IMG/VR virus record: IMGVR_UViG_3300032397_000006
Span: 32,001-96,000 of that record
DNA from: a virus
Direction: 5' to 3' (one strand)
DNA length: 64,000 nt
The notes beneath the pieces were generated by a model, which saw nothing but the letters and a program-made list of their open reading frames with translations, had not been told where the DNA came from and ran no database searches. The position numbers and the translations under genes are program-made. Positions 874-63,638 of the stretch are shown here, in pieces (positions within the stretch are counted from its first letter, which is position 1; each line of letters starts with the position of its first letter).

Positions 874-1039
874 GGCTACCTTCCATTCCGCTTCCACCAC
901 CCGCACCGCCTTTGGCCTTTGCTCGGAGACACGCCCTCCCGTCCGGGCGATCATGATCTCGCATGAACGCAGCCCAGTTCTTACTCCAAGTTCGAACCTT
1001 GCAATGTGGACATTGCAGCCTGCTGTCTTTCTTTTCCAT
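860..1039 (-). CDS. small Cys/His (Zn-finger-like) hypothetical protein
   Basis: ATG 1039 follows the repeated promoter/RBS cassette; CPHC...H..C. Confidence 0.55.
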   Translation of the reverse strand: MEKKDSRLQCPHCKVRTWSKNWAAFMRDHDRPDGRACLRAKAKGGAGGGSGMEGSRAQN

Positions 1040-1091
1040 CGAACACCTTCCCTTCACTCCAGAGCTTATCGCGTCCTGCGATAACCTGCAA
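1032..1091 (-). promoter_or_regulatory. repeated promoter/operator/RBS cassette
   Basis: Minus strand TTGCAG-N17-TAAGCT; palindrome TTATCGC-N5-GCGATAA at 1066-1084; SD GAAGGGAAGGTG. Confidence 0.85.
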
Positions 1092-1232
1092 GCGCTTTCA
1101 AAGGCACGAGGAGAATCACCCGCTCCCACGCCTCGAGTGCGGCCCGGTACTCGGCTGAGCTCAGCCCGTGGCGCTCGCGTGCCGCGCGTACGCACTCGGC
1201 CGCGGCCTCTACGCGGAGCTCTCGCTCAGTGC

Positions 1233-1472
1233 TCACAGCTTCGGGCATCGCGCAATCGCCTCCGGAGTGAAATGCCACGCCTGCAGGCGCTTGGTGCACA
1301 CGGGACAAGTGAGCTCGTCTTCGTGCACGTCGCACAGGTTACCCGCCTTCACGCGCCCGCACAGTGCGGTTTTCCCGCCATCCTGAGACGCGTGCGTCAA
1401 GAGCGTGCCTGCAAGCGAGCTGTCCGCGTACGCGCCAGCGAGCACGCCGTGGAATGTGACGGGCGCGCTCAC
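1233..1472 (-). CDS. hypothetical Cys-rich protein
   Basis: Start overlaps the upstream stop; H..ALC...C..CPVC. Confidence 0.55.
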   Translation of the reverse strand: MSAPVTFHGVLAGAYADSSLAGTLLTHASQDGGKTALCGRVKAGNLCDVHEDELTCPVCTKRLQAWHFTPEAIARCPKL

Positions 1473-1852
1473 GACTCACACTCGAATTGCTGGCGCTGCT
1501 TGCGAAAGCCGTCGTAGCCGTGCAGAGCAATACAGCGGTATGTACGAAAACCGCACGCCTCGATCCGTGTGAGTGCTTCGGCAGCAAGTGCTTCGTCCGC
1601 GTTGTGGCTAAGCAACGAGATAGCCGACAGTGTGTCGTCGATGAATTCGACGGTAAGTGCGTGAGCGCGCAAAGGCTTTACAGCGCTAGCTATTTCGGCG
1701 CGTGATACAAGCGCGGCAGTATGCCGCCCTGCGTACTCCCTGTTAAACTCATACACGTTCGCAACGTGCGCGAGGTACAGGTCTCGTATTTCGGCACCTG
1801 TTAGATAGGCGATAGCCGCCAACTCTTGCACCGGCATGATCCGAACACTCAC
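1469..1852 (-). CDS. hypothetical protein
   Basis: Translationally coupled by GTGA overlaps. Confidence 0.6.
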   Translation of the reverse strand: MSVRIMPVQELAAIAYLTGAEIRDLYLAHVANVYEFNREYAGRHTAALVSRAEIASAVKPLRAHALTVEFIDDTLSAISLLSHNADEALAAEALTRIEACGFRTYRCIALHGYDGFRKQRQQFECES

Positions 1853-2253
1853 GATGCCACCTCCCGCACCTGCGAAGCCACGCCAACACCGCGCACGTAC
1901 CAGTACGGCTCCACCTCGAGGGGCAAGGCCAAGCTATGCCCCGGGCTGAAATCCACCGGGCCTGCGCTTGCTGCATACTGCCGCGCTTCCCCGTAGGTCC
2001 GCCAGCCCCCGTGATGCACGGTCGCGCCGAACACGCGGTCACCGTTCGCAGTCACAATCATCACCACGAAGTGACACAGCAACGCACGTGCCTCGCTGGT
2101 TTTGCCCTCGTGCGCGTGCTCGAGATCAGTCAGCCAGCCCATTTTATCAACGCCCATGGTTGCCACGGCCTCACGACGTTCCGGCGCAAACCGCCAGCTC
2201 TGCGCATCGCCTACCCGCCGCCACTCACGATCCATTTCCCGCTCATTTTCCAT
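1849..2253 (-). CDS. hypothetical early-type protein
   Basis: ATG 2253 follows the cassette SD. Confidence 0.65.
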   Translation of the reverse strand: MENEREMDREWRRVGDAQSWRFAPERREAVATMGVDKMGWLTDLEHAHEGKTSEARALLCHFVVMIVTANGDRVFGATVHHGGWRTYGEARQYAASAGPVDFSPGHSLALPLEVEPYWYVRGVGVASQVREVAS

Positions 2254-2305
2254 CGAACACCTTCCCTTCACTCCAGAGTTTATCGCACGCTGCGATAAAC
2301 AGCAA
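2246..2305 (-). promoter_or_regulatory. repeated promoter/operator/RBS cassette
   Basis: TTGCTG-N17-TAAACT; palindrome 2280-2298; 33 nt identical to 1032-1064. Confidence 0.85.
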
Positions 2306-2313
2306 GCCTCGAA

Positions 2314-2946
2314 TCAGCCGTCGTCGTCCTGCAAGAGATTTTGCAGTCGTTCCCGCAGCTTCGCGTCGCGCTCGTCGTCGTCTGCATCGTCGTCGTGTTT
2401 CTCGAGCCACTTTGCTGCGGCGCCGAGCAGCCACTTGCGCACGTCGTCTGCGTCGAGGGCCGCATCAGCGTTCGCGTTCGCGACCTCGTTAGCAACGAGC
2501 TCGCCGAGCTCAAGATCCGAGGTCACGACATCGTACAGAGTGACCGGCGCGAACCAGTCGGAGGCCTCCCAGTAGGTTCGCGCGCTTCCTACGGCCTCTC
2601 CGATTTTCTCGCACAGCCGATCCATGCGGTCGCGATCGGCCTCGCCGCCCCACGAACCCACGTGATTATTTCCATTCCACTTGGCGCCGCGATAGAAGCC
2701 CGCGAGCTCCACCAATTCAGCCTCGTGCGCCCGCAGCACGGCCTCAACCTCGTCAGGCACTGCGGTGGCCGACACGCGGCACACGCACAGCCAGCGGTGG
2801 TGCCAGGCGGGCTCTGGGCAGCCCGCGCCAACGGTGCCCCACACGAACACCTCAGGCGCTGGCCCGTCCGCAGGGATCAGGTACACGCTGTTGTTTGCAC
2901 CCGAGGTCTGCACGAGATCCATGTTTCCGTAACGCATCTTTTCCAC
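2314..2946 (-). CDS. hypothetical acidic protein
   Basis: Long ORF directly after the cassette SD; GTG start about 2946. Confidence 0.7.
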   Translation of the reverse strand: MEKMRYGNMDLVQTSGANNSVYLIPADGPAPEVFVWGTVGAGCPEPAWHHRWLCVCRVSATAVPDEVEAVLRAHEAELVELAGFYRGAKWNGNNHVGSWGGEADRDRMDRLCEKIGEAVGSARTYWEASDWFAPVTLYDVVTSDLELGELVANEVANANADAALDADDVRKWLLGAAAKWLEKHDDDADDDERDAKLRERLQNLLQDDDG

Positions 2947-2949
2947 GAT

Positions 2950-2997
2950 CACCTACCCTTCACCCTTGAAGTTATCGCGCTTTGTGATAACTGTCAA
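2950..2997 (-). promoter_or_regulatory. repeated promoter/operator/RBS cassette
   Basis: Consensus TTGACA-N17-TAACTT; near-palindrome 2972-2990; SD GAAGGGTAGGTG. Confidence 0.9.
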
Positions 2998-3215
2998 GGG
3001 AGTACCTCCGTTATTCCACGCAGCTCGGCGAGGGCCGATCGAAGTGCTTTGATGGCGGCTTCTGCGTCCTGCAGGGGAAGGGCGCCTCGTATTTGAGGGC
3101 GCACTCGCTCAAGCGCGCAAACTGCCTCGAGTAGTAGCGCGTGCAAATCCGCGGCTGTGATTTGCACAACTTCGGGAGTGCCCCGAGTCGGCAAATGGTA
3201 GCGCGAGATAATCAC
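2994..3215 (-). CDS. hypothetical protein
   Basis: Coupled small ORF. Confidence 0.5.
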   Translation of the reverse strand: MIISRYHLPTRGTPEVVQITAADLHALLLEAVCALERVRPQIRGALPLQDAEAAIKALRSALAELRGITEVLP

Positions 3216-3409
3216 AGCTCACTACTCAGCACGCCGTTACGCAGCCAACCACAAGCCTGCACCGGGCGCTTTCCGTTCCTCTGCACAACAAACTTTTCCT
3301 CGGAAGCAAGATGCACGTAAACGGCGTCACCTTCCTTGCAACCAACTGCGAGCACCTTCCAGCGAGCTCCAGCAATCAGCAACGCGGTGCCTTGTTTAAT
3401 TTCGTCCAT
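3212..3409 (-). CDS. hypothetical protein
   Basis: ATG lies 7 nt after a degenerate palindrome (3417-3435). Confidence 0.6.
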   Translation of the reverse strand: MDEIKQGTALLIAGARWKVLAVGCKEGDAVYVHLASEEKFVVQRNGKRPVQACGWLRNGVLSSEL

Positions 3410-3447
3410 GCTTCATTTATCGCACGCTTGGATAACAGCGGTCAACC

Positions 3448-4119
3448 CTAAAGCTCGATCTCGCACGAGCGCTCGACCGCGCCCTGCGCTTGCGCGTAAG
3501 ACTCGGCCTTGCCCTCAGTCGCCCGCGTACAGTAGCGCCAGCCCGCAGAGAGCGGCGCAAGGTCGTAGTAGACCAGGCCTAGCGGGAGCTCGTCGAAAAC
3601 ACCGGGTAGCGCCCAGCCGCTGCGATGGAGCTCCGTGGGAGCCTTACGCAGTCTGGCGATGGCCGCTGCGGGCACTCGGCCTACGTGCGTCCGACACTCC
3701 GGAGACAGCCCTGTCAGTGTCACGCAGCCAAGCCGTGGCACAATGGCCACGGCCGCAGGAAAGCTCGACGTGAGCTGCGACGCCTCGTAAAGCACGATCA
3801 GCCCTGGCACGCAGTTTTTCTCGGTCACGGTATCGTTGCAGCGCTCGCCTGCCTGCAGCGGCTGAAACGCGCTAGACAGGAGCTCACCCTCGAGTTGATA
3901 GCGCCACTTCGCGGAGTCCGAACCTCCGATCTCGACCTCGCGAGCAGGCGACGATTTCGCAGTTTCTGAAAACAGCAGATCGGATGCGAAAGTCATCACG
4001 CACACACGGTAAGGCCTCAGCACGCCTGGCACCGCAACGCGAACGGGCCACACGCCAAACCGAGCGTGCAGCCATTGCACCGAGCGTTGCAGACTGCGCG
4101 GATCAACGGGCTGCGTCAT
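3448..4119 (-). CDS. hypothetical protein
   Basis: ATGA overlap with the upstream gene. Confidence 0.6.
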   Translation of the reverse strand: MTQPVDPRSLQRSVQWLHARFGVWPVRVAVPGVLRPYRVCVMTFASDLLFSETAKSSPAREVEIGGSDSAKWRYQLEGELLSSAFQPLQAGERCNDTVTEKNCVPGLIVLYEASQLTSSFPAAVAIVPRLGCVTLTGLSPECRTHVGRVPAAAIARLRKAPTELHRSGWALPGVFDELPLGLVYYDLAPLSAGWRYCTRATEGKAESYAQAQGAVERSCEIEL

Positions 4120-4358
4120 TTACGAGCGCCCGCGTCCGCAGCAATCCGGGCGATCACGCGCTCGAGGCACTGCGGACAACCGAGCAACCTTCCTTTCTGC
4201 ACACTGTTGTAAAACCAGTGATCTGTGTCGACGAAAACAAACTCAGTAGCCCGTAGCTCGCCGTCGACATTACTGCCTATGCGGCGCCCGCACAAAGATC
4301 TGCCTATCCTGTCGGCGTGCGTAGCAGCAATGCACTTAACGTATCCAGGTCTGTCCAT
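4116..4358 (-). CDS. hypothetical Cys-containing protein
   Basis: Compact gene packing; C..SLCG...CPQC. Confidence 0.6.
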   Translation of the reverse strand: MDRPGYVKCIAATHADRIGRSLCGRRIGSNVDGELRATEFVFVDTDHWFYNSVQKGRLLGCPQCLERVIARIAADAGARK

Positions 4359-4361
4359 TGT

Positions 4362-4595
4362 CTAGATCCACGTTTCGATGATCTTCGGATCGTCTTGCTC
4401 GCAACGCTCCAAACGAGAGAGCCCCTTCTGCGAAAGGAAAGCGCGCAACGCTTCTAGCGTTTCGAATAGGTAGCACTCTTTCGGCGCAGTCAATTCCCAA
4501 CGCCTCGTCACGTAATGCTCCGGGTAGTCGCCTGGATGATCATAGACCGTCCAGATATCGAGAAGGTTCTGATCACTCACGACGGATCCCACCAC
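4362..4595 (-). CDS. conserved small phage protein
   Basis: WTVYDHPxDYP..YV.R.W ... DDPKIIETW motif typical of phage hypotheticals. Confidence 0.7.
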   Translation of the reverse strand: MVGSVVSDQNLLDIWTVYDHPGDYPEHYVTRRWELTAPKECYLFETLEALRAFLSQKGLSRLERCEQDDPKIIETWI

Positions 4596-4808
4596 ACGTC
4601 GCCGGGCTCGATATCGAACGCAGCTGTCGCGTGAATCGCTACGTTACTATTCGTGCCGTGCTTTTCGATAATCGTAGGCAACGTATTACGCAGCGCCGTT
4701 ACGACTGCCGTTGCTTCCTCCGCCGCAAGCACAGGATCGCTGTGCTCTTTAATGCTGCGCACATAAACCATGGACCAGATAACGATCGCACTTTCCACAG
4801 AGCACCTC

Positions 4809-5321
4809 TTACTGTTCCAAAGGGGGGTATTCGTGATCATATGCGTCGAGGTTCAAATCCTCGTCATCGATCTCGGCCTTTTCGTGGAAAACCTCCAAGA
4901 TCGCAGCCCGCACAATAGCGTCGTGCTCTTTATCGGAAAGCATGCCCTTGGATTTTTTCAGCGCCGCCCGTATGCGCGCAGTTAACATGGAAGCATCCGC
5001 TTCCATTAGAGCGATCGTTGCAAACACGTTTGCGCACCCCTCATAGTGTTCGAATACCTCTTGCAGATCGTGGAAAAACTCCTCACTTAGCTTTGACATA
5101 AGAGGGTGCAGCAACTCCTCCGCAATTTCACGCGCGAGTTGTACCGGCGGAGAATAGGGAGGTCTGCTCGCCAAGCCTCTACTCTGATCAGCAAGCTCTC
5201 TGTAAAATACAGACGCATCCTCGTGCGAATGAATTGACGCTTTGCGAACTTTATCGATCGCGTCCAGCACGTTATCGTGTAGCGCTTCTTCTTTATCGCG
5301 ATCTCGTTTTGTGTGCTTCAT
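4809..5321 (-). CDS. hypothetical protein
   Basis: Probable ATG at 5321 (MKHTKRD). Confidence 0.6.
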   Translation of the reverse strand: MKHTKRDRDKEEALHDNVLDAIDKVRKASIHSHEDASVFYRELADQSRGLASRPPYSPPVQLAREIAEELLHPLMSKLSEEFFHDLQEVFEHYEGCANVFATIALMEADASMLTARIRAALKKSKGMLSDKEHDAIVRAAILEVFHEKAEIDDEDLNLDAYDHEYPPLEQ

Positions 5322-9921: not shown

Positions 9922-10095
9922 CTACTTCGCCGCGGACTCGCGTGCAACGCACGCACGGAATCGGACAACATCCTCGCTATCCTCGAGACTTGAATCCGCC
10001 CTGTCGTCGCTGTCGTCGCGCACGTAGTTTTTCAAGCGTTCAAGCATATCCTCGCGACTGAACGAGGCCTTTCTTGGTTTCTGATCCTCCATCAC
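9922..10095 (-). CDS. small acidic hypothetical protein
   Basis: Start overlaps the stop of the zeta-domain gene. Confidence 0.5.
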   Translation of the reverse strand: MMEDQKPRKASFSREDMLERLKNYVRDDSDDRADSSLEDSEDVVRFRACVARESAAK

Positions 10096-11387
10096 ACCCT
10101 CCGGAGCACGAGCTTTACAGCTCGCATAGACTTCATCCAACCACGGGCGCGCGCGATCAAATGTCGGCGTAATCCCGTCTGTTTGAATTTTCGCACATAG
10201 TTCGGATCAATAACAACGTCGGGCTGATTTTCTCCGCCCGCCCACACTAGGCGCGGTTTCGGGCCTGCGTTGTCAAATAGCGAGAATTCATGAGCTCTAC
10301 GCGCTATCTGCTCGAAATTCCCAGGAATGACGTGGTGCGCTTCCCGCACGAAATTGTCAGGCACGTAACGCCCGGTATTCCGCGCTCGGGAGCCCACGCG
10401 GGAGACAGCCTCAGCGAGCGGAATGTGTGGCATCACGAGGTGCACGTGGTAGCCCGCGGCTTTCAGTGCCTCGATTCGCCCAATGAATTTCTCCGTGTTT
10501 TTCCCCGTGCCGTCGAGAATCAAATTCTTGCGCTCTGCCACAGCGCGAGCTCGGACCTTTTCGCCGAGGTCGCTGGACTCCTCGTGTGCCATGGCCGCGG
10601 CATCTTTCGCCGTCACCGTCGATCCGTCCGCTGTGAGTCCGTACGCGAGAGCTCGCTGATACTCAGGTAGCTTTTCCTTACACGCGTCTGGATCGGACAC
10701 GACGAAATCATTGTGGTCGCCCACTAGCGTGGCGAGGATCGAGCCCTTGCCGACGCCGGAGCCTCCCATGGTGACGATCGCCGTGGGCGTGCGATCGAGC
10801 GGCACGGGCTTCACGTGCTTGGTAAATGAATCCACGATCGCCGCGTGGAGCGCTTTACGCTCAGGCGTGTAATCCTTGAAGCGCACCGGGCGAATACGAC
10901 CGACCTCGATTGTGTGCGCGGTTTTCGTTTCCGCAGGAAGCCCGATCGAAGTCGCGGATTCGAGCCAAGCGCGATCGCGCTTGGTTGCGTGCGTTGCGCG
11001 CTCCGCGTCTGAAAATACGTGCACCACTTCGGCCGGGCTCACGATCGGGAAACTGCTGGGCGCCTCGCGACGCTGCACCGGCTTTGTGCCCGTGTGTCCG
11101 TAGTCGTAGTTCCAGCCGCCCTTACCATCTGGCGTGCGACGAATGTATTTATGCCCGGGCCGCTCCTCGCCCTTTTCCGACTTGAGCAAATCGAGCGGGA
11201 TCACGTGCGCCTTTTGTGTCGGCTGCTGCTGCGCTTGCTGTCGAGGAAAGCGAGCTCGAAATCCGCGCTCCCTCGAGCGTCGGATGTCCGAATATTTCTT
11301 AGGCTGCGCGAGCCCTTGTGCGAGGCCTCCGCGCAGCATATCGGCGAGGCGTGCCGTCTCGCGTGGATCCTTCGGCGGTAGGCTCAC
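10092..11387 (-). CDS. tagged zeta-toxin-family P-loop kinase
   Basis: GGSGVGKG Walker A, DPDACKEKLPEY, AHEESS, NLILDGT, GRYVP, FSLFDN; one tag; GTGA-coupled start at 11387. Confidence 0.88.
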   Translation of the reverse strand: MSLPPKDPRETARLADMLRGGLAQGLAQPKKYSDIRRSRERGFRARFPRQQAQQQPTQKAHVIPLDLLKSEKGEERPGHKYIRRTPDGKGGWNYDYGHTGTKPVQRREAPSSFPIVSPAEVVHVFSDAERATHATKRDRAWLESATSIGLPAETKTAHTIEVGRIRPVRFKDYTPERKALHAAIVDSFTKHVKPVPLDRTPTAIVTMGGSGVGKGSILATLVGDHNDFVVSDPDACKEKLPEYQRALAYGLTADGSTVTAKDAAAMAHEESSDLGEKVRARAVAERKNLILDGTGKNTEKFIGRIEALKAAGYHVHLVMPHIPLAEAVSRVGSRARNTGRYVPDNFVREAHHVIPGNFEQIARRAHEFSLFDNAGPKPRLVWAGGENQPDVVIDPNYVRKFKQTGLRRHLIARARGWMKSMRAVKLVLRRV

Positions 11388-20856: not shown

Positions 20857-21299
20857 CCTGACACGCGTGCGGTTTGAATGTCAGGCCCGGGGGAAGCTGT
20901 TATGTAACCTCAACTGCCCGGCAATTAAAACAGCACACCGAGAACACCTGAGGGGCGGGCGCAACCCGCGCGCATAAACCCGGAGTAGGTTTTGCCCTAA
21001 TGGCACAGCGCTTATATTGCCTGGTGTGTATGGATGCGGCAAACCGCGTTTCAGCGCGCGGGCGCAAGTGGCAAGTGACGTGGCGCGGCTGTGGGCTGAT
21101 CTCGCAGTGCTGCGGCGTAGCTCGGTCTATTTTCGAAGGTGGCGGCAAAGCTCCCGCGAAAACGAGAAAGCAAATCAGCAGTGCGAAGATCAGCGCCACG
21201 CGTTGATCCGTACACGAAGGGAGGCTGCGCTGTCTAGTCGATCAGTACGGGCCGATTATCCCCGTGCGGTCTGTGTTAATTGCAGAGGCGTTTTTGCGT

Positions 21300-23275: not shown

Positions 23276-23279
23276 GGTA

Positions 23280-23480: not shown

Positions 23481-23492
23481 ACGGCGGAGCTC

Positions 23493-24805: not shown

Positions 24806-24817
24806 TCGATCACCTCA

Positions 24818-25081: not shown

Positions 25082-25127
25082 TCTGTCACCTTTCTACACT
25101 GCACGTCCTCATCGCTAAGCGTGCGCG

Positions 25128-25499: not shown

Positions 25500-25524
25500 T
25501 ACTCGAGTACCCTTTCGCTATGGC

Positions 25525-26647: not shown

Positions 26648-26656
26648 GATTCCCCC

Positions 26657-27154: not shown

Positions 27155-27170
27155 AGCTGCAAGAGTAACA

Positions 27171-27937: not shown

Positions 27938-27942
27938 TAGCG

Positions 27943-51402: not shown

Positions 51403-52072
51403 GTAAGATCACCTCTCCTAGTTCGTTTCGTACCTCCGTTCGCTTGTGCGAAAGGTGGAAAAACTCATTACCAGACACGCTGCGTTTTTCTAGCGCAATC
51501 GCTGCAGTGCTCAGCGAGGGATATTTCGTACCTTCAACCTCGAAACCGTCCTCGCGTAGTACCACAATACTTTCGCTGCCATTCAATTTGCGGCGCACAA
51601 GCTGCATTCCGATACGCAGCGGAATCGACTGGCCTATGCGGACGCCGCGATCTTTATAGCCGTGGGGGCCCTGCAGCTGGGCGAGCATATACTCAGGCGC
51701 GATCGTGCCAGCCTGCGCTTTCCACTCGCGGCGCACTCGCTTTTTCGCCTTCGGCTCAATAGGCGTCGTGTGCCGCAACGCGAGCGGGATCGGAGCATCG
51801 CCCAGAGCATGCCTGCGCAGCATTCGATTAATCCCCGTGCTGTAATTGATCAGGCCTCGCGAAAGCGCGAGCACTTCCTGATCGACCTCTAGCCCGTGAG
51901 AAGGGCCTAGGCCCTTTTCGATCGAAGCGGGTAAACACGAGAACTTATCGCGGCAATTAGGACACGCGGTGCTCCGTGCAGAATAGCCCTCAGGCGCTTC
52001 GCCTAACGCGTGGCATTCTGGAAGCCATTGCGGATCTACCGCAGGCACTCCTGGTAATAATCCCATCGTCAC
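51377..52072 (-). CDS. Cys-rich N-terminus plus DUF2924/RAMA-like domain protein
   Basis: C...CPNC....C; DGFEVEG..Y.SLS.AA......SGNEFF. Confidence 0.6.
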   Translation of the reverse strand: MTMGLLPGVPAVDPQWLPECHALGEAPEGYSARSTACPNCRDKFSCLPASIEKGLGPSHGLEVDQEVLALSRGLINYSTGINRMLRRHALGDAPIPLALRHTTPIEPKAKKRVRREWKAQAGTIAPEYMLAQLQGPHGYKDRGVRIGQSIPLRIGMQLVRRKLNGSESIVVLREDGFEVEGTKYPSLSTAAIALEKRSVSGNEFFHLSHKRTEVRNELGEVILRGGSETTD

Positions 52073-52133
52073 CCCTTGATCGAACGGTTATCACTCCGAG
52101 CTATAGGGCAACGCGCGCGATTGCGCAAGAGAT

Positions 52134-56521: not shown

Positions 56522-57059
56522 CCCAATTAAGGGAAACCCCGATCCAGCGAACAGCACTGGATCGGGGCAGGGGGGTGCGCGACTCCGCAGGGAAGCAAGT
56601 GTCGAACGAGGCAAACGTGCACTTATCGCAGACTGGAGTCAAGCGACTTTGTTTGCACTCGCGAAATCGCGAGGGTAGGCTCCGGCCGCCTGAATCGGTG
56701 ATCTCCGAGGACACCGAGGACCACTGGGCACGATCTGGATACTGATCCTATGAATTCCACGAAAATGGAACTAGGCACGCGGGCGAGGGGTGGCTCCCCC
56801 CCGTGGATCACTACGTCGTGCACAGCCGTTACTCGTGCGCCAACGAGAGCTATCGCAGCCCCTAGCAAGGCCTCCTAAATTGTGACCCGACACAAGTACC
56901 ACCGTACCGCACCACGTGAAACGCTGACATTGGCGCAATTACGCGCCCAGCGGGGACGTGAGAGTGCGTGCGAATGGCGGGGTTACAGGAGTGCACCGAT
57001 TTCGGCGGTGCACGTCGCGCGTTCGCGCGTCGAAAAATGCGAGCTCTTTAAGCACACCA

Positions 57060-57390
57060 CAAACCCGCTAGCGCATTTCTCTTTTCTGCTTTCTCCTGAT
57101 CCGGAAACCGAAGGTTTCTCCGTGGTTTTTTTTGAGCGCGAGCGCAAGCGAGCTCTCTGCTCAAAAAAAACTTCTTTAAGCGGGGATTTATTCCCGCTTA
57201 AAGACTGAGCCAGATCGAGTCTGATCAAGATCCTAAGGTCCTTAGTTCCGGTTTCCCTAGAAGCTCACGAAGTGAACTTCAAACGAGTCCCGAACTGAAC
57301 CTTAGGAAAAAAAAGCAAAACGAGAAATGCACTAGCCGGGTGCCCGCGCTTTTCGCTATTGAACTTGGTTCAATAAGGAACGAAAAGCCC
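57060..57390. other. hairpin-dense non-coding element (candidate replication origin or structured RNA)
   Basis: Several perfect stems plus an enclosing long-range inverted repeat; AT-rich runs. Confidence 0.6.
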
Positions 57391-57485
57391 AACGATATCA
57401 GCAGCTTAGGCTACTGAACGCAGTTCCCACGAACCTTACTCTGTTTGACCAGACTTATTACAGCCTCGCCCGGTGAGTTACCGTG

Positions 57486-57929
57486 TCACTGCGACAAAGC
57501 GTAAGCTCCGGCTGCTACGGCTAATGCGCTTAGGGCAGCACCGACGCCGAACCATAGGGCGGGCGACCTGTGCCAGGCGTCGCGCTGTTTCTCGACCTCG
57601 AGTCTCGCGAACACTGCGCGGTCAAGCGCGTCCGACGCGCGCATTTCGCCCTGTTCGGCGAGCGCGAGTAATCGCTGAGACGCCGCAATCTCCTCGTCTA
57701 GTAATTCGATCTTACGCTCGTACAGCGTCTGCAGATCGATCGTGAGTTTTGCCGTTTGCAGATCGCGCAGCACTCGTTGCGCGACGTCGGCACGAAACCA
57801 TATCCCGTCGATACCCTCTCGGCGCATAGGCACTTGCGTAGCGCCTACAGGCGGATCTTCGCCGTGCTCAACATCAGCTCGAGCTGTGGCGCACGCGAGA
57901 CTCAGCAAAACGATCAGAATTTTTGACAT
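57486..57929 (-). CDS. signal-peptide plus coiled-coil plus C-terminal TM protein (spanin-like)
   Basis: MSKILIVLLSLACATARA; C-terminal LWFGVGAALSALAVAAGAYAL. Confidence 0.55.
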   Translation of the reverse strand: MSKILIVLLSLACATARADVEHGEDPPVGATQVPMRREGIDGIWFRADVAQRVLRDLQTAKLTIDLQTLYERKIELLDEEIAASQRLLALAEQGEMRASDALDRAVFARLEVEKQRDAWHRSPALWFGVGAALSALAVAAGAYALSQ

Positions 57930-57951
57930 AGCGCCCGTGTACCATGGGGGC

Positions 57952-58284
57952 ATGCTTTGGCTGTCGATACGCAAGCGCGCTCGGGCGTTGATCTGGGCAG
58001 TCCTCGGCCTGCTCGGCGTGGGCGCTCTGCTGTCGCTGCGGCGACGCAGGCAAGCGCTACTGCTCGCGAGCGCAGACAGTACCGTGATCGAGGCGCGGGC
58101 GAAGGTGCGCGAGCTTCGTGCGACACGAGCTGCACTTGCTGAGGACAGCACCGCACGCCTCGACGAGATCGCGCAGATCGATCAGTCGATCGAATCTCAT
58201 AAATCGAGGATTGCAGCGGTGCAGAAACAGCACGGCCTCACGGCGGAGGAAATCTCCGCGGAGTTTTCGAAACTCGGCTACTGA
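57952..58284 (+). CDS. N-terminal TM plus coiled-coil protein (i-spanin-like)
   Basis: LIWAVLGLLGVGALLSL followed by heptads. Confidence 0.55.
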   Translation: MLWLSIRKRARALIWAVLGLLGVGALLSLRRRRQALLLASADSTVIEARAKVRELRATRAALAEDSTARLDEIAQIDQSIESHKSRIAAVQKQHGLTAEEISAEFSKLGY

Positions 58285-59084
58285 CCTGCGTCCGCATACT
58301 CGCGGGCGATCAGCCTGGCCTCGTAACGAGCTCGCTCGCTCGACATGCGCTGCCACGCTCCGGTGGACGGGGCCCAGCGAAAGCCCGCGCGCTTCAAGCG
58401 CTCCCTGATTGCATCCGGGGGTTTGCCCGGAAACACGAGCTGAGTCCTATTGTCCTCGTCACGCAGGGTGACCTCGCCGATCTCCTCGTCTGCGATCTCG
58501 CCGCGCTTCTCTGCCGCCTCGAGTACGACCAAGCGCTTTCGCAGTCTCCGGATTTCGGCCCCGTCGTTAGTCAGCTGGTACGGGGCAAACCCGATCCGCC
58601 CTGCGAAATCCGGCGCTATGATTTGCGCGGCGAGCACTGGCGAAAATCCGAGCGCTTGCAGGCTAGTGCGTGCCTTACTGTTGTCGCCCTTGGCTGCGCG
58701 GATTGCTTTGTTCGCCGCCTTCATGCGCGCGACATCGTTCTCGAGTTTCGCGATTTTCTCGCGGATCCGATCTGCTGCACTCGGATCGTCCGAGCTGATC
58801 ATGTTGTTTCGCTCCGCGCTCGCTGCGCGGCTCACGAGAGCCTTGGCTTTATCGAGCGCTTCGAAGCCCGCGCGATAGCACGAATCGATTCGTGCGAGGT
58901 CCTTGCGGTGCCTGCGCTCACTGTGATGCCCGATCAGGATCGGTTGCCCCATGGGAATCATCGCCCCGATCCTGCGTGCCGCGTTGATCCGGCTGTGCGC
59001 TGCGCCCTCGACCTCTGCCGCCCGTGAGCGCAAACGATCGATCCGCACGGCCTTACGCTCTGCGTAGTCTGCTCGACCAGTCAC
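58278..59084 (-). CDS. DUF3560 domain protein
   Basis: IPMGQPILIGHHSERRHR, ISSDDP.A, F.GKP...R..LK..GFRWAPS..AWQR. Confidence 0.9.
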   Translation of the reverse strand: MTGRADYAERKAVRIDRLRSRAAEVEGAAHSRINAARRIGAMIPMGQPILIGHHSERRHRKDLARIDSCYRAGFEALDKAKALVSRAASAERNNMISSDDPSAADRIREKIAKLENDVARMKAANKAIRAAKGDNSKARTSLQALGFSPVLAAQIIAPDFAGRIGFAPYQLTNDGAEIRRLRKRLVVLEAAEKRGEIADEEIGEVTLRDEDNRTQLVFPGKPPDAIRERLKRAGFRWAPSTGAWQRMSSERARYEARLIAREYADAGQ

Positions 59085-59320
59085 GACACCACCGCAATTC
59101 GGCAGAGCTCAACCAGCTGTGCTTCGGCCGCGAGCTCCGCCACCACAGCAGCGTGATCTTCACAGCGCACCCAGCAGTCCTTATCTGCAACCCAGACCAA
59201 CCTGCTAGCGCTGAACTCAACCCCCACGCAACCGACCAGCACGCGGTCAGCTCGCAATTCAGAGACAGTCCAGTAACCGCCGCAACGCACCGCGTCTCCC
59301 ACCGCTATTTTCTTTTCCAT
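59081..59320 (-). CDS. hypothetical early-type protein
   Basis: ATG after the cassette SD. Confidence 0.6.
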   Translation of the reverse strand: MEKKIAVGDAVRCGGYWTVSELRADRVLVGCVGVEFSASRLVWVADKDCWVRCEDHAAVVAELAAEAQLVELCRIAVVS

Positions 59321-59324
59321 CGCA

Positions 59325-59371
59325 CACCTTCCCTTCATTTCCAGATTATCATACGCCGCGATAACTGCAAG
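59325..59371 (-). promoter_or_regulatory. repeated promoter/operator/RBS cassette
   Basis: Near-palindrome 59346-59364; SD GAAGGGAAGGTG. Confidence 0.8.
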
Positions 59372-59695
59372 CTAGCCGTGCGCCGCCCCGTGATTTTTCC
59401 CGCCGCACGCGCACTCGCACACGTGACCAGTGGCGCCCATGCAGCGCCCGTCGCATTTTTTGTCTGCCACCACTTTGCCGAACACGGGCTTGAGCCTCGC
59501 CGATCCACCGCAGCCGCACGGATATTCGAGCTCGAATACGTTGGTGCCCATCGGCGGAGAATAGAAAAGGGAGCTGCCGCTCACGAACTTCCCGCACCAC
59601 GCACCGCGGTAAAAAACAGTGTTTTTCTCGCGCTCAGCCAGCACACTGAATCGCTTTTTGCAGCGGAGGCACTTCCCGTTGTAACGCTTTTCCAT
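59372..59695 (-). CDS. Cys-rich Zn-binding early-type protein
   Basis: KCDGRCMGATG..CECACGGKNHG. Confidence 0.75.
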   Translation of the reverse strand: MEKRYNGKCLRCKKRFSVLAEREKNTVFYRGAWCGKFVSGSSLFYSPPMGTNVFELEYPCGCGGSARLKPVFGKVVADKKCDGRCMGATGHVCECACGGKNHGAAHG

Positions 59696-59699
59696 CACA

Positions 59700-59747
59700 C
59701 ACCTGCCCTTCACTCAGAAGCTTATCGCGTTACGCGATAACACGCAA
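59700..59747 (-). promoter_or_regulatory. repeated promoter/operator/RBS cassette
   Basis: TTGCGT-N17-TAAGCT; palindrome 59722-59740. Confidence 0.85.
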
Positions 59748-59774
59748 GCACAAAGCCTCGTGATACCGTCACAC

Positions 59775-60260
59775 GTGGCCTACGACTCCGAACGTCCGAC
59801 CATTCCGATCGCCGTGAGGCGTGAGGTGCGCCTCGCCCGGGCAAAGGACGCGCTAGCGGTACTCGGCACCTCTGGCGCGCTGATCGGGTCTGCGTGGGGC
59901 CTCGCGTGGTCCGCGATTGACCATTTCGCGACGGACGCTGAGGTCGCGACGGCGACCTCGACACACGACACGAGCGCGCAGGCCCATTTACGCCTGCGCA
60001 ATCGCATCGATGACCTCGAGTCCACGACGCGAGCTCAGCACGCGGCCTTGCTCGCTGCGCAAGATCAGCTGCTCGCACTCTGGCGATGGCAAGTCGGATA
60101 CGCAGCGGCTGACCGCGAGGACGATCACCGACTGCGCGCAGCTGCAGCATCTTACTATCGCGAGATTTTCGATCGGCTCGTCCGCGAAGGGGTGCCTCCG
60201 GAGCAAGCGTTTCGCGATAGCCTGACAGAGCGCTGGTCAGATCGGCCGCGCCTACGATAG
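59775..60260 (+). CDS. membrane protein with coiled coil (holin/lysis-associated candidate)
   Basis: One TM segment; preceded by TGaTACCGT-5 nt-GTG. Confidence 0.5.
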   Translation: MAYDSERPTIPIAVRREVRLARAKDALAVLGTSGALIGSAWGLAWSAIDHFATDAEVATATSTHDTSAQAHLRLRNRIDDLESTTRAQHAALLAAQDQLLALWRWQVGYAAADREDDHRLRAAAASYYREIFDRLVREGVPPEQAFRDSLTERWSDRPRLR

Positions 60261-60270
60261 GAGCTCCCCT

Positions 60271-60945
60271 GTGCTAGTTCTCGCTCCATTACGCGACACT
60301 GAGGGCAAGCGCGACGTAACCGGCGCATTCCTGCCTGAGGCTCGAGCGCTCGCCGATCGCCATGGCGGGACTCTGCGGCAGATCGAAAACACGGTGCCCT
60401 TCACCGCACGTCGTGCGCTGTCGCTGCGTGAGATCAATCGGTACGTACAAGAGCGCGGTGCGCTCGACGCATTTGCCATGTGCTGTCACGGATGGCCGCA
60501 GGGCGTGCAGCTCGGATTCAGGATCGAGGACGCGGGACTACTCGCGCGAGCTCTCGCGCAAAAGCGCAGCCTGCGCACCGAGCCGTTCGCGGTGGGGCTG
60601 CTCTGCTGCGATACGGCGCGCGACGCGGACGCGGATCGAGCTGACGATCTCGCGGATGGGCCCGGGGGCATCGGCGGGTTTGCGGACACGTTGTGCGAGG
60701 CGATCGGGAATCTCGGATTCCACGCACGCGTGACAGCGCACGCAACGCTCGGCCACACGACCTCGAATCCACACGTGCGCGTATTCGACTCGGCCGATCG
60801 GACACCGGGAGGCGTCTGGATCGTGCCTCCGCGCTCGCCGCGGTGGGTGCGCTGGACTCGCGCGCTACGCGATACGGATTTGCGTCTGCGTGTGCCCTTC
60901 ATGCAGCAGGACGCGATCGAGCGCGAGCTAGACGCCATCGCCTAG
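60271..60945 (+). CDS. caspase/CHAT-fold (clan CD, DUF4347-like) His-Cys protein
   Basis: FAMCCHGWP and VGLLCCDTA, GFA..L; SD AGGAG. Confidence 0.55.
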   Translation: MLVLAPLRDTEGKRDVTGAFLPEARALADRHGGTLRQIENTVPFTARRALSLREINRYVQERGALDAFAMCCHGWPQGVQLGFRIEDAGLLARALAQKRSLRTEPFAVGLLCCDTARDADADRADDLADGPGGIGGFADTLCEAIGNLGFHARVTAHATLGHTTSNPHVRVFDSADRTPGGVWIVPPRSPRWVRWTRALRDTDLRLRVPFMQQDAIERELDAIA

Positions 60946-61335
60946 GTAGTCGTAAATCTCAAGCGGCACTTTCGAGCGCTCTCGAAACGCCTGCAGCGAC
61001 GCTCGGAATTCCTTGGTCCACTCCGGGCTGAACGAGCTGTGCCGAGTGATGCTGCTGCCGTCGCCGTTGGCCTCTAGCGCGCCCGCGATAAAGTCAGGGT
61101 GCCCCCACCCAGCGATCACCACTACGCTGTGCCCAGGCTCGTAACTTGAGGCCACGAAGCCCTCACGCGAGCGCTTGCGTGGCCTCCGGTAGCTCACGTG
61201 CAGGGCCTCTTTATATTGCGCGTAAGGGCCTTTCTCGACCGAGACATCGTTTGCCTCGACCGAGGTCCAGCCGAACATGCTGGATCTGTAAACGGTCGCC
61301 TTCGCCAACTCGAGCACTTTGATTTTTTCTCCCAT
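60928..61335 (-). CDS. hypothetical phage protein
   Basis: YAQY..AL.V.Y..PRKR; GWGHPD. Confidence 0.65.
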   Translation of the reverse strand: MGEKIKVLELAKATVYRSSMFGWTSVEANDVSVEKGPYAQYKEALHVSYRRPRKRSREGFVASSYEPGHSVVVIAGWGHPDFIAGALEANGDGSSITRHSSFSPEWTKEFRASLQAFRERSKVPLEIYDYLGDGV

Positions 61336-61366
61336 GGCACTCCCCTAATCTGCTCGCCGCGCGAGC

Positions 61367-61558
61367 TCAACCCATTGCGGTGATCACCAGAAAAGTTGCG
61401 AGGTCTGCGGGCTTGGTTTTCCCGATCTCGCTCGCGGCCAACTTCCGCACGATCGGAGCGTTGTGCTCCGAGGCTGCCCACGCGCGGATCGAGTTGCTCT
61501 CGATTGCCGCAAGAACCGCCGCTACGTACGCATCTAGTTTTTTCTCCGAGACCTTCAT
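61367..61558 (-). CDS. hypothetical early-type protein
   Basis: SD GGAGGT; follows a cassette. Confidence 0.55.
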   Translation of the reverse strand: MKVSEKKLDAYVAAVLAAIESNSIRAWAASEHNAPIVRKLAASEIGKTKPADLATFLVITAMG

Positions 61559-61565
61559 GACTTCA

Positions 61566-61606
61566 ACCTCCGATCTAGTTATCGCACGTCGCGATAACTC
61601 ATGCAA
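61566..61606 (-). promoter_or_regulatory. repeated promoter/operator cassette
   Basis: Palindrome 61579-61597. Confidence 0.8.
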
Positions 61607-61613
61607 CACGAAA

Positions 61614-61853
61614 TCAGCAGCCCTCGAAAAAGATGCTCAGGTCCAGTTCGGGCAGCGCAGGCTCCTCGAATACCGGGCCTGCGAACGGCTCGACCACGGG
61701 CACCTCGGTGTAGCTGCCGTACGCGCCCTCCACGAAGCTGGTTACGACGCAGAAGCCCAGCGGTCTCTCTGCCGAGCGGGAGCGCGCTCCCGCGCACACG
61801 GTCACACGCACGGTCCCTTTTACGTCCTCGTAGCTCAGGATATCTTCGTACAC
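61614..61853 (-). CDS. hypothetical early-type protein
   Basis: GTG after the cassette SD. Confidence 0.55.
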   Translation of the reverse strand: MYEDILSYEDVKGTVRVTVCAGARSRSAERPLGFCVVTSFVEGAYGSYTEVPVVEPFAGPVFEEPALPELDLSIFFEGC

Positions 61854-61855
61854 AA

Positions 61856-61902
61856 AACACCTTCCCTTCGATCTAGTTATCGCACTTCGCGATAACTTGC
61901 AA
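61856..61902 (-). promoter_or_regulatory. repeated promoter/operator/RBS cassette
   Basis: TTGCAA-N17-TAACTA; palindrome 61877-61895. Confidence 0.85.
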
Positions 61903-61906
61903 TCCC

Positions 61907-62173
61907 TCATTCGCCTGGATGGCGGTAGTCGATCGCCATCACGAAGGGAGCAGCCTCCCCGCGAGCAGCGGCCTCGCTTTTGTGCGCCTTCACGAAAGCT
62001 TGCGCGTCTTTTTTGGCACGGAACAGCACTTGCTCGCCTGCGGCGTACACAAACCGCTTTTCCGGTACATCGCAGATTTTCGAAGTCACTCCGTTACAAA
62101 CCGAAACAAGCTCAGTCGCAGGGATCACCTGTTCAAACGAGCGCACACAAACCACGATTGCCTTTGCCATCAC
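61907..62173 (-). CDS. hypothetical early-type protein
   Basis: Follows a cassette. Confidence 0.6.
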   Translation of the reverse strand: MMAKAIVVCVRSFEQVIPATELVSVCNGVTSKICDVPEKRFVYAAGEQVLFRAKKDAQAFVKAHKSEAAARGEAAPFVMAIDYRHPGE

Positions 62174-62220
62174 AACACCTTCCCTTCGATCTAGTTATCG
62201 CATATCTCGATAAGCCGCGC
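62174..62220 (-). promoter_or_regulatory. repeated promoter/operator/RBS cassette
   Basis: 29 nt identical to 61856-61884; near-palindrome 62195-62213. Confidence 0.8.
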
Positions 62221-62228
62221 ACCTGAAA

Positions 62229-62696
62229 TCAACCGAGTGAGGCGATTACCTCGAGTTGCCGCGGCGAGGGCGCTTTGCCTGACCTGATCTGCCCCGCTAC
62301 CGATTCCGCGAACATGCCAGGAAATCCTGGGCGCGCTGACATGCCGTCAAGCCTCTCGAGCAGCGATGCGAACCGCTCGCGCATCGCTGCCGCCTTGGCT
62401 GCCTTCCGGGCCTTCCTGAGCTCGCGTTCGTGTTTCTTCTGCCAGTCCTCGACTCGCTTCTGCATGCCTGCACCGCCCGCGCTCAGGGCGCAGTCGCACC
62501 CCACCTTGAAGCGAGCTCCACACGCACCCTGCAGCTGCGCGGCATACATGATCGAGGCGCCGCAGTAGTCGCACGATCCACCAGGCTTGATCGGCTCACC
62601 AGGCGCCGCCTGAAACTTGTGCTCGCTCACACCGAGAAATCTGTACGGGGCCTTGCCTAGCCCCGCCTTTTCGAACTTGTGCACCATTTCGTCCAT
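62229..62696 (-). CDS. Zn-finger early-type protein
   Basis: HKFE.AGLG.APY, CDYCG..I, FKVGCDC, S.RQ. Confidence 0.75.
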   Translation of the reverse strand: MDEMVHKFEKAGLGKAPYRFLGVSEHKFQAAPGEPIKPGGSCDYCGASIMYAAQLQGACGARFKVGCDCALSAGGAGMQKRVEDWQKKHERELRKARKAAKAAAMRERFASLLERLDGMSARPGFPGMFAESVAGQIRSGKAPSPRQLEVIASLG

Positions 62697-62703
62697 CTCG
62701 CTA

Positions 62704-62747
62704 CCCGTCCCTTCGATCTAGTTATCGCATGTCGCGATAAGGCTTGC
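62704..62747 (-). promoter_or_regulatory. repeated promoter/operator/RBS cassette
   Basis: Palindrome 62722-62740. Confidence 0.8.
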
Positions 62748-62755
62748 ACGCGAAA

Positions 62756-63025
62756 TCAGCCCACGACGACGATTTCGATGGCGCGTGTCGGGTTTCCGTC
62801 CAGCAAACGAAGGACGTTGGCCTGCAGTCTGTTAGGGTGCCGCGCCCACAACGTCTTACGCTTGCCCGCTTTGTAGCCGTTCGTGAATTCGAGCGTAACG
62901 GCCACGTTGTGGCAGTAGTCCGCGCCTAGCTCTTTAATCTCGGTCACTTTGGCCGAGGCGTTTTTAGCGATGTCCAGGGCTTTGCAGCCCCTGGAAATTT
63001 TGACTTTTGCTCCGACTGTAATCAT
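62756..63025 (-). CDS. SH3-like hypothetical protein
   Basis: ATGA-coupled start at 63025. Confidence 0.6.
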   Translation of the reverse strand: MITVGAKVKISRGCKALDIAKNASAKVTEIKELGADYCHNVAVTLEFTNGYKAGKRKTLWARHPNRLQANVLRLLDGNPTRAIEIVVVG

Positions 63026-63345
63026 ACGCCCCCCGCCTCTTTCTCGAGCTTCGCCGCGCAGCGTCCCGCCCACTCGCCCGCGGCATGCTGATCGTCCTCG
63101 TCGAGAGCTGCATCCCAGCACGCTACGGCGATCTCCCACTCTTGCTCTGCGGAGTAGGGCGAGAACACCTCGAGCACGCGGTACGCGCTCAGCACGCGGA
63201 TCCAAGGGCGCACCACGCGCCCGACTTCTGCCTCACTCAGGCGACACTGCACCTCGCTCTCGGTACCCTCGAGCAGACCCGAGACGTACAACGCTTTGAC
63301 TCGCACGAACGGGTCAACCCCCGCAGCTGGCTTTTTCGCTTCCAT
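63022..63345 (-). CDS. hypothetical protein
   Basis: Coupled ORF. Confidence 0.55.
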   Translation of the reverse strand: MEAKKPAAGVDPFVRVKALYVSGLLEGTESEVQCRLSEAEVGRVVRPWIRVLSAYRVLEVFSPYSAEQEWEIAVACWDAALDEDDQHAAGEWAGRCAAKLEKEAGGV

Positions 63346-63348
63346 GAC

Positions 63349-63588
63349 CTACACCGCCTTTTCGAACTTGGGCGCAGTGCCCGACGCAGCGCTTGCTTGA
63401 GCGTTTTTGATCGCGTCGTGACGTGCTGCCTTCGGAGTCGGGCCCCAACCGATCGCCACCGAGGTCCCGTGGTTGCTCACTTCTGCTACCCAGGCATACG
63501 CGGGATTGCGCCCGTGAAATTCTGCCGCTTTGCTGGCGCGCACGCCCACGCGCCCGGTTACGTTGTTTGAGAATCCCTTCGCCATCAC
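63349..63588 (-). CDS. hypothetical early-type protein
   Basis: Follows the cassette SD. Confidence 0.6.
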   Translation of the reverse strand: MMAKGFSNNVTGRVGVRASKAAEFHGRNPAYAWVAEVSNHGTSVAIGWGPTPKAARHDAIKNAQASAASGTAPKFEKAV

Positions 63589-63638
63589 AACACCTTCCCT
63601 TCACTCAAGAGGTTATCGGAGAACGCGATAACTGTCAA
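63589..63638 (-). promoter_or_regulatory. repeated promoter/operator/RBS cassette
   Basis: TTGACA-N17-TAACCT; near-palindrome 63613-63631. Confidence 0.88.

Follow-up and report, generated by a model that had tools for sequence, protein, structure and literature searches.

The stretch of phage DNA analysed here, referred to as the window, comprises 64,000 nucleotides (bases 32001–96000 of the 104,085-bp IMG/VR virus record IMGVR_UViG_3300032397_000006), and coordinates given below are window positions. It carries 13 copies of a composite cassette of ~55–60 nt, each bridging the whole interval between one gene's stop codon and the following gene's start codon. Read along the minus strand, a cassette consists of the upstream stop codon, often TGA followed by TTTCG, a −35 hexamer TTGnnn, a 19-bp dyad (TTATCGC-N5-GCGATAA), a leader of 7 or 10 nt, the Shine-Dalgarno (SD) box GAAGGGAAGGTG and a start codon. 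The SD box is present with at most one mismatch in 11 of the 13 cassettes, the exceptions being 62722 (GAAGGGACGGGT) and 61579 (GGAGG), while the start codon lies 4–7 nt past the box and opens a frame of 59–210 amino acids (aa), or 59–212 aa according to automatic gene calling. An initial annotation had described palindromes starting at 1066, 2280, 2972, 31734, 32224, 32608, 59346, 59722, 61579, 61877, 62195, 62722 and 63613; all 13 are real, and the cassettes are named here by these dyad positions. Also borne out were its division of the cassettes into two subtypes and three clusters, the identical runs of 33 nt (2280/1066) and 29 nt (62195/61877) that it had reported, and the MEK or MEN starts of several downstream genes, with the SD box and first codons belonging to the repeat. 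All 13 sites are oriented with minus-strand genes and lie in intergenic spacers of 41–130 nt, mostly 41–67 nt and nearly all cassette.

Counts of the dyad in the window (6 exact copies, 12 with at most one mismatch and 16 with at most two) compare with 0 to 0.3 in shuffled sequences, and every dyad with at most one mismatch in the 104,085-bp genome falls inside the window. A sequence-only model built from the 13 cassettes and four cassettes of a relative recovers exactly these 13 in the window (40–61 bits, E 1e-10 to 1e-17) and nothing in the remainder of the genome beyond one match at E 0.025. The model also found nothing in three ~100-kb relatives, and the dyad was not found in five relatives of that size. 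Searches for the cassette returned only two chance matches in IMG/VR, both in 40%-GC contigs, and only six single chance matches in bacterial and archaeal genomes. A metagenome scan yielded one true relative, contig Ga0315277_10389205 (hereafter L056; 1,435 bp, 59% GC), which carries four cassettes. No known RNA family was identified in the window with Rfam.

Less well preserved copies accompany the 13 (Table 1). Those listed by the initial annotation at 3417, 25784 and 29066 do exist, with two to three mismatches, and a −35-like TTGAC is present at 3417 and 25784, but the SD box is absent and all three fall below the model threshold. Further relics beyond that list were found at 30818, 29135–29168, 5324 and 49179. 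Because at 3417 the ATG follows so closely on the dyad and there is no SD box, the mRNA of gene 3212–3409 may be leaderless.

Table 1. Cassettes, related repeats and surrounding modules, in order along the minus strand of the phage genome (dyad positions, sequence features and the gene headed are given where applicable; SD, Shine-Dalgarno).
Feature	Position (strand)	Sequence features	Gene headed or context	Model score (bits)
Baseplate and tail-fibre genes	just right of window		first along minus strand	
Island 1	56623–63722 (−)	cassettes 1–7	cluster 1 small genes; between tail-fibre end of structural module and replication module	
Cassette 1	63587–63641 (−)	subtype A; −35 TTGACA; dyad 63613–63631; leader CCTCTTGAGT; SD box	78-aa ORFan, 63349–63585; L056 homology starts exactly at its −35	52.7
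Cassette 2	62700–62753 (−)	subtype B; dyad 62722–62740; variant SD GAAGGGACGGGT	155-aa ORFan, 62229–62696; within 0.8-kb segment missing from L056	45.5
Cassette 3	62172–62225 (−)	subtype B; dyad 62195–62213	87-aa ORFan, 61907–62170	52.2
Cassette 4	61852–61907 (−)	hybrid, A-type −35 register and B-type leader CTAGATC; dyad 61877–61895	79-aa ORFan, 61614–61853	60.9
Cassette 5	61567–61609 (−)	subtype B; dyad 61579–61597; SD GGAGG	63-aa ORFan, 61367–61558	39.7
Cassette 6	59694–59752 (−)	subtype A; dyad 59722–59740	107-aa Cys-rich ORFan, 59372–59695; diverges from plus-strand gene pair 59826–60945	48.9
Cassette 7	59319–59368 (−)	subtype A; dyad 59346–59364, 2 mismatches	79-aa ORFan, 59081–59320	40.5
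Terminator-like hairpin	57173–57204 (−)	strong; 12-bp stem then T8	closes cluster 1 ahead of replication module	
Replication/recombination block	56521 to 42496		helicases, primase, family-A polymerase, SSB, UvsX/RecA-like protein, fused SbcCD-like protein	
TerL	36820–35228 (−)		followed by cluster 2 small genes	
Island 2	21030–32657 (−)	cassettes 8–10 and degenerate copies	about 33 small genes	
Cassette 8	32583–32635 (−)	subtype B; dyad 32608–32626	107-aa ORFan, 32261–32584; opens island 2, about 40 nt past stop of 469-aa gene	49.2
Cassette 9	32199–32253 (−)	subtype B; dyad 32224–32242	140-aa ORFan, 31778–32200	45.4
Cassette 10	31709–31764 (−)	subtype B; dyad 31734–31752	85-aa ORFan, 31453–31710	56.4
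Degenerate copy	30818–30836 (−)	TTGACG, 1 nt, TTATCGT-N5-GTAGTAA	upstream of gene 30510–30797	
Relic	29135–29168 (−)	left arm absent	near degenerate copy 29066	
Degenerate copy	29066–29084 (−)	3 mismatches	heads operon 29043 to 26657, whose last gene encodes the ECF sigma factor	
Degenerate copy	25784–25802 (−)	TTGACA, 3 nt, dyad with 3 mismatches	78-aa gene, 25525–25761	
Giant multi-domain, probably injected, proteins	20835–11384 (−)			
Portal	7877–6129 (−)		followed by cluster 3 small genes, then head and tail genes left of window	
Island 3	1–5321 (−)	cassettes 11–13	extends about 170 nt beyond left edge of window	
Degenerate copy	3417–3435 (−)	TTGACC then dyad with 2 mismatches; ATG 7 nt past dyad; SD box absent	gene 3212–3409	
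Cassette 11	2946–3001 (−)	subtype A; dyad 2972–2990 within longer inverted repeat	~210-aa ORFan, 2314–2946	44.5
Cassette 12	2252–2310 (−)	subtype A; dyad 2280–2298	134-aa ORFan, 1849–2253	55.2
Cassette 13	1038–1095 (−)	subtype A; dyad 1066–1084	59-aa Cys-rich ORFan, 860–1039	54.2

Parts of the dyad also occur elsewhere in the genome. GCGATAA is present in 36 copies on the minus strand of the 104-kb genome, compared to about 4.5 expected from composition. The arrangement TTGACT-N7-GCGATAAG without the left arm occurs twice, at 56622–56642 (−) just upstream of the replication module and at 37351–37371 (−) upstream of the block before TerL. Left of the window, a long imperfect inverted repeat (G000:C1:24704–24861) lies just downstream of the probable major capsid gene; its ~22-nt arms hold TTATCGC and GCGATAA ~33 nt apart, and it is followed by a G+C-rich terminator.

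The two subtypes differ in the placement of the −35 hexamer and in the leader. In subtype A (63613, 59722, 59346, 2972, 2280 and 1066) the −35 ends 0–1 nt before the dyad, the leader is (G/C)CTCTGGAGT-like, and a hexamer TAAnCT, made up of the last three dyad bases and three more, lies 17 bp from the −35 (16 bp in 59346). Subtype B (62722, 62195, 61579, 32608, 32224 and 31734) has a −35 ending 3 nt before the dyad, the leader CTAGATC, and GATAAC at 17 bp from the −35, with TG at the extended −10 position in 7 of 7 copies when 61877 is counted. The −35 carries TTG in 11 of the 13 cassettes. Across both subtypes, the dyad begins 0–3 nt downstream of the −35 and contributes the −10 through its right arm, with the hexamer ending 6–7 nt ahead of the GAAGGG box in both subtypes. 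A 17-bp spacing in both requires that the promoter be offset by 2–3 nt relative to the dyad, and the SD box moves along. As −35, −10 and box move together against a fixed dyad, we read the cassette as a promoter and a distinct dyad site that overlap.

The layout of a promoter-like sequence and ribosome-binding site heading its own small gene, as proposed in the initial annotation, was found at all 13 sites. On standard sigma-70 geometry, transcription is predicted to start at the first bases of the GAAGGGAAGGTG box, giving a leader of 16–20 nt in which AAGGTG would serve as the SD sequence. We posit that host RNA polymerase with its primary sigma factor would bind the −35 TTGnnn and a weak −10, using TAAnCT in subtype A and TG-extended GATAAC in subtype B, both at 17 bp. 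A terminator scan found none at or between cassettes, and with no terminators between units transcription would add up along a cluster. Two observations weigh against these presumed promoters: the −10 is a poor match to sigma-70, and a generic consensus promoter scanner reports none of the 13, the reason being that the hexamers lack T6 or lack four matches.

Ahead of the replication module, cluster 1 ends in the strong terminator-like hairpin listed in Table 1. The surrounding AT-richer, non-coding stretch between cluster 1 and the replication module (57000–57490) contains back-to-back terminator-like hairpins (57125–57171 and 57173–57204) and short GGTTC/AAGTTCA repeats, and may be a transcription boundary, an origin or both.

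A further point against recognition by the host primary sigma factor is that the phage encodes a sigma factor of the extracytoplasmic function (ECF) type with regions 2 and 4 (Sigma70_r2 and Sigma70_r4_2; 165 aa, 26657–27154, −, island 2). The cassettes could be promoters for this factor, which would make them a middle-class, self-amplifying accessory-gene regulon. Its gene belongs to an operon headed by the degenerate cassette at 29066, the cassettes have both −35 and −10 elements yet score poorly as sigma-70 promoters, and relatives with another sigma-like protein (Sigma70_r2 and DUF2924) lack the cassette, one of them having a different single-element motif. ECF promoters in general, irrespective of this particular phage sigma, mostly have an AAC core in the −35, usually CGT(C) in the −10, and rigid spacing. 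The −35 here (TTGAC/TTGCA) is instead of the primary-sigma type without the AAC core, and the −10 lacks CGT(C). Moreover, TG extensions typify primary-sigma promoters, and sigma region 3, which reads them, is absent from ECF sigmas. Between subtypes the −35 shifts by 2 nt relative to the dyad, more than rigid ECF spacing would allow were the −10 inside the dyad. Cluster 1 also sits where early genes are classically placed, with the last tail genes on one side and the replication genes on the other. Control by the ECF sigma factor is therefore a possibility that we consider unlikely, with recognition by the host primary sigma factor kept as the more likely reading.

The nearest homologues of the ECF sigma factor are bacterial (40–53% identity, one of them from a Polyangiales metagenome-assembled genome), and an IMG/VR search with the protein gave no match. 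The relatives' sigma-like gene lies between primase and PolA and encodes 463–639 aa with an N-terminal Sigma70_r2 (L037:443–2362; L049:1418–2809), the 639-aa protein of relative G003 having an additional C-terminal DUF2924 match. The syntenic gene in the present genome (51377–51874, in region 51377–52133) retains the DUF2924 part only, followed by a 259-nt non-coding gap. No relationship was detectable between the ECF sigma factor and the relatives' sigma-like protein, and the arrangement looks like a non-orthologous replacement of the phage sigma. The argument that the sigma gene is accessory, and the cassettes consequently its regulon, was dropped since relatives carry another sigma-like gene in the replication module.

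We interpret the 19-bp dyad, which spans the spacer and the −10, as a separate element and most likely an operator bound by a dimeric DNA-binding protein. Its arms are equally conserved (10.7 bits each), and the substitutions found in the arms of seven copies are all one-sided, none being compensated in the opposite arm; one of the seven changes keeps a G-U wobble and five break the pair, while 59346 breaks the innermost pair and keeps a G-U at the next. The corresponding RNA hairpins are weak (−6 to −16 kcal/mol in 49 nt, z −5.0 to +1.4), 9 of 13 fold no better than shuffles, and none of the 13 is followed by a U tract. An operator is preferred over a terminator because the sequence is conserved without pairing, the site has dyad symmetry, and it is positioned across the spacer and −10.

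The same data bear on the alternative that the dyad acts as a nucleic-acid structure which attenuates or processes read-through transcripts or extrudes as a DNA hairpin, like the stem-loop of the promoter-early stem-loop (PeSL) cassettes of T4-like phages (Arbiol et al. 2010, PMC2839356; Comeau et al. 2014, PMC4122927). PeSL stem-loops lie mostly between −35 and −10 or over the −10 and have been shown to terminate transcription (PMC2839356), and here 4 of the 13 copies do fold significantly better than shuffles, with several stems extending to 8–17 bp. However, most hairpins are weak with non-significant z and no U tract, the one-sidedness of 7 of 7 arm substitutions indicates that arm sequence rather than pairing is conserved, and the dyad is fixed in both sequence and position where PeSL stems vary in both. 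We thus rate a structural role as rather improbable.

Inverted repeats just upstream of a predicted start site are also reminiscent of phage N4, in which hairpin promoters are used by a virion-delivered RNA polymerase, and giant, probably injected, multi-domain proteins are encoded near the cassettes. No RNA polymerase domain was found in these proteins; a search for the single-subunit polymerase family was also blank, although the controls were likewise silent, making that search weak and uninformative. The cassettes span 62 kb rather than one genome end, and N4 early promoters are not known to have a well-placed −35 TTG. An N4-like mechanism consequently seems highly improbable.

With the dyad read as an operator, a dimeric DNA-binding protein bound to it would switch the whole regulon together, presumably early in infection. 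The repressor-controlled regulon put forward in the initial annotation is supported in so far as one dyad recurs at 13 promoters; its repressor half fares less well, as no clear repressor gene was found, which counts against this interpretation. The only DNA-binding candidates are the ECF sigma factor and two helix-turn-helix (HTH) proteins, namely a 223-aa protein (24134–24805) with weak HTH_23, HTH_28 and HTH_3 matches and a PHROG 'transcriptional repressor' match at E 1.7e-4, and its partial paralogue (22040–22453), also a weak match.

All 13 cassettes, and those degenerate copies that precede small genes, fall in three islands which together make up 23% of the genome. The 13 cassette-headed proteins are mutually unrelated and not paralogues, for which reason gene duplication was rejected as the source of the repeat; no Pfam family matched any of them, and no PHROG matched the five that were tried. 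The host-takeover function suggested in the initial annotation is not borne out by these searches. Three relatives (G001, G003 and G004; complete, ~100 kb, TerL 58–65% identical) were compared with all gene calls by tblastn. Island genes are almost without homologues in them, with none at all for the minus-strand genes of island 1, whereas the backbone (baseplate, replication block, TerL, portal, capsid and tail) is syntenic and conserved. Island 3 is inserted between two head-module genes which are immediate neighbours in each of the three relatives; for the genes flanking island 2 this holds in one relative. In islands 1 and 2 the first cassette lies within 40–80 nt of the last gene before the island. 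Island 2 includes, besides the ECF sigma and weak HTH genes, an MT-A70 methylase gene (29950–30513), and the islands also hold an HD protein and a DUF3560 protein.

Inside cluster 1, two plus-strand genes of 144 and 224 aa with normal codon-position GC (59826–60945) diverge from cassette 59722 and converge on gene 60928–61335. Neither has a family match; the 224-aa gene has a 36% homologue in relative G004.

Comparison with L056 points to exchange of genes at the cassettes. The contig matches window 61825–62213 at 95.7% and 63035–63643 at 92.5%, and shared coding parts are about 96–99% identical. Homology begins at the −35 of cassette 63613, before which the upstream gene has been replaced by a different Cys-rich small gene with its own subtype-B cassette. 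Missing from L056 are 821 nt (window 63034 to 62214) that hold an 89-aa gene and, with its cassette 62722, the 155-aa gene, as well as the upstream part of cassette 62195; high identity restarts at the SD box of cassette 62195. In place of cassette 62195, the L056 cassette before the MAKAIVV gene is a chimera, with a −35 and dyad identical to those of 61877 and a leader matching that of 63613 at 31 of 32 nt. Cassette 61877 itself has the same promoter in both phages and a leader which is A-type in L056 and B-type here. The comparison for gene swaps bounded by cassettes, proposed with the initial annotation, has thus revealed a replacement, an indel and chimeras with breakpoints at or in cassettes. 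L056 also contains a 33-nt insert (reverse strand 653–685) near the 3′ end of the 78-aa gene which copies the stretch from the SD box to codon 11 of the 155-aa gene (MDEM..KFEKA; window 62663–62699). The 78-aa protein ends in PKFEKAV in both phages, and the insert resembles a remnant of an earlier junction that joined a gene body to a gene start near a cassette.

Two points weigh against this account of exchange. One edge of the 821-nt indel lies at a gene end and not in a cassette of this genome, so the picture is one of exchange at cassettes together with at least one other event, and the evidence for recombination comes from a single 1,435-bp contig. Variants of cluster-1 ORFans were, in addition, found by a cluster look-up on several other small metagenome contigs, in differing combinations. 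T4 PeSL-like shuffling of genes, as the initial annotation had it, is accordingly supported by the ORFan islands and the cassette-located breakpoints in L056, the edge of the 0.8-kb indel being the part that does not fit.

It could be argued that the repeats are only co-regulation signals spread by local duplication, and that general recombination placed the L056 differences near cassettes by chance. There is a single relative contig, one indel edge does lie at a gene end, and cassettes fill most of the intergenic DNA of cluster 1, where breakpoints that avoid genes must fall. Set against this, three independent differences lie inside or at the edge of cassettes, and two cassettes are clean chimeras of parts of other cassettes. 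Furthermore, as the cassette-headed genes are not paralogous, the repeat did not spread by gene duplication, and the same cassette types occur in three islands 25–30 kb apart. Coincidence is in our view a poor explanation, with little probability.

On balance, we favour as probable that these are composite, PeSL-like cassettes for co-regulation and shuffling, with a sequence-specific dyad that is probably an operator, in a phage unrelated to T4. The cassettes would serve as portable homology patches for moving, deleting and re-promoting accessory genes. The phage encodes recombination genes of its own (UvsX/RecA-like, SbcCD-like and SSB), whose products would use the homology between cassettes. 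A more speculative extension, to which we assign a low likelihood, is that a dedicated phage protein recognises TTATC-N9-GATAA, repressing the regulon and also guiding strand exchange, amounting to integron-like, site-directed gene capture in a lytic phage; cleavage of a hairpin by the SbcCD-like nuclease might aid such site-directed exchange at the dyad.

The phage genome (104,085 bp, ~60% GC) is rated complete by CheckV, no end repeats were found in it, and about 133 of its 141 gene calls lie on the minus strand. It gave no megablast DNA match to cultured phages, and no cultured phage in the collection reaches 31% identity to its TerL or PolA. These values, together with a family-A polymerase and a DnaB-like helicase and primase, indicate that it is not T4-like. 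Neither a Phage_integrase match nor a ParA-type ATPase was found in the 104-kb genome, positive controls for each having matched in 14 of 14 genomes, and a temperate lifestyle was rejected on this basis. The lack of integrase and ParA also implies that the cassette regulon is probably not a lysogenic immunity system.

In a 1750-aa protein (15583–20835, −), InPase and SAM-lyase-like domains occur alongside weaker matches to DarA_C and DRAT-like domains that stay below threshold, and its 435-aa neighbour (10092–11399, −) has a zeta-toxin-type kinase domain; both are typical polyvalent proteins and are probably packaged in the virion. Stretches of 22–60 aa are common to the 657-, 435-, 1400-, 1750- and 469-aa proteins encoded between 7887 and 34077. 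The UvsX/RecA-like protein (538 aa, 45414–47030, −) also matches terminase and DnaC-type ATPase families at residues ~100–200 and may be a fusion or carry an insertion. Left of the window lie three tandem paralogues (G000:C1:10608–15752; 550–579 aa, 52–57% mutual identity) which are absent from the relatives.

Other repeated motifs were observed upstream of genes in this genome and its relatives. A ~30-nt motif, CGCTACCCGG..GG.T.GGG..CACTTT, occurs upstream of TerL (36887, −) and of a 173-aa gene (34641, −) and may be a late promoter type; with two copies only, it was set aside as a second promoter class. Relative G001 (L041–L046) has 12 copies of GTAATCGTGTAAG placed 8–35 nt before start codons, one of them after PolA, where the present genome has the weak site 49179, and relative G004 (L047–L052) has about 12 copies of CCAAAGGATAAT at 1–17 nt before start codons. 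Repeated expression signals thus seem to differ from lineage to lineage.

Among known systems, the closest resemblance is to the PeSL cassettes of T4-like phages. A PeSL unit starts with the upstream stop codon, contains a sigma-70-like −35/−10 and has an SD sequence and start codon at its 3′ end; PeSLs are concentrated in hyperplastic regions before ORFans, and chimeric units mark indels between close relatives (PMC2839356, PMC4122927). In the literature searched, PeSLs are not described outside T4-like phages; whether other viruses owe plasticity to analogous cassettes, and whether a protein binds the stem-loop, were questions that the PeSL authors did not settle (PMC2839356). The cassettes described here share with PeSLs the composite unit running from the upstream stop codon through a presumed −35/−10 to SD and start codon, the inverted repeat between −35 and −10 or overlapping the −10, and the many copies before ORFans in hyperplastic regions. 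They also share the nature of the differences between close relatives (here one contig), namely insertions, deletions, replacements and chimeric cassettes at the joints. They differ in their carrier, which is not T4-like (family-A polymerase, DnaB-type helicase, ~60% GC, TerL <31% identical to cultured phages), and in having a dyad of one fixed sequence and position, whereas PeSL stems are variable G/C stems that fall into five positional classes. The PeSL stem-loop is an effective terminator or attenuator, while the dyad here is not terminator-like by sequence criteria. In addition, the −10 departs widely from consensus, the repeat extends over the SD box and first codons, and no terminators separate the units, a strong one instead closing cluster 1.

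Dispersed-operator regulons include the C1 operators of P1, the conserved inverted repeats at early promoters of phiC31 and the stoperators of mycobacteriophage L5. As in these, one short site recurs at many promoters and one regulator would serve scattered small operons; here, in contrast, no clear repressor, integrase or partition gene was found, and the sites are confined to lineage-specific islands, where they form part of a larger recombining cassette. A further parallel is with morons (Hendrix et al. 2000, as discussed in PMC2839356), additional genes that bring their own promoters and sit between conserved ones, as island 3 does within the head module; here, in contrast, all units share one cassette, lack terminators and are exchanged at the cassette. 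The likeness to integron gene-cassette arrays lies in unrelated small genes separated by a repeated, partly palindromic site. Unlike those arrays, each gene has its own promoter, there is no integrase, and exchange is most simply explained by homologous recombination. An unrelated, high-GC, uncultured phage lineage thus shows both the PeSL-type architecture and its signature between close relatives, which points to the coupling of co-regulation with recombination as a general means by which large phages keep and trade accessory genes. Fixed in sequence and symmetric, the dyad offers a concrete handle for finding its binding protein, and the 13 ORFans form a defined, putatively co-regulated set of candidate host-interaction genes.

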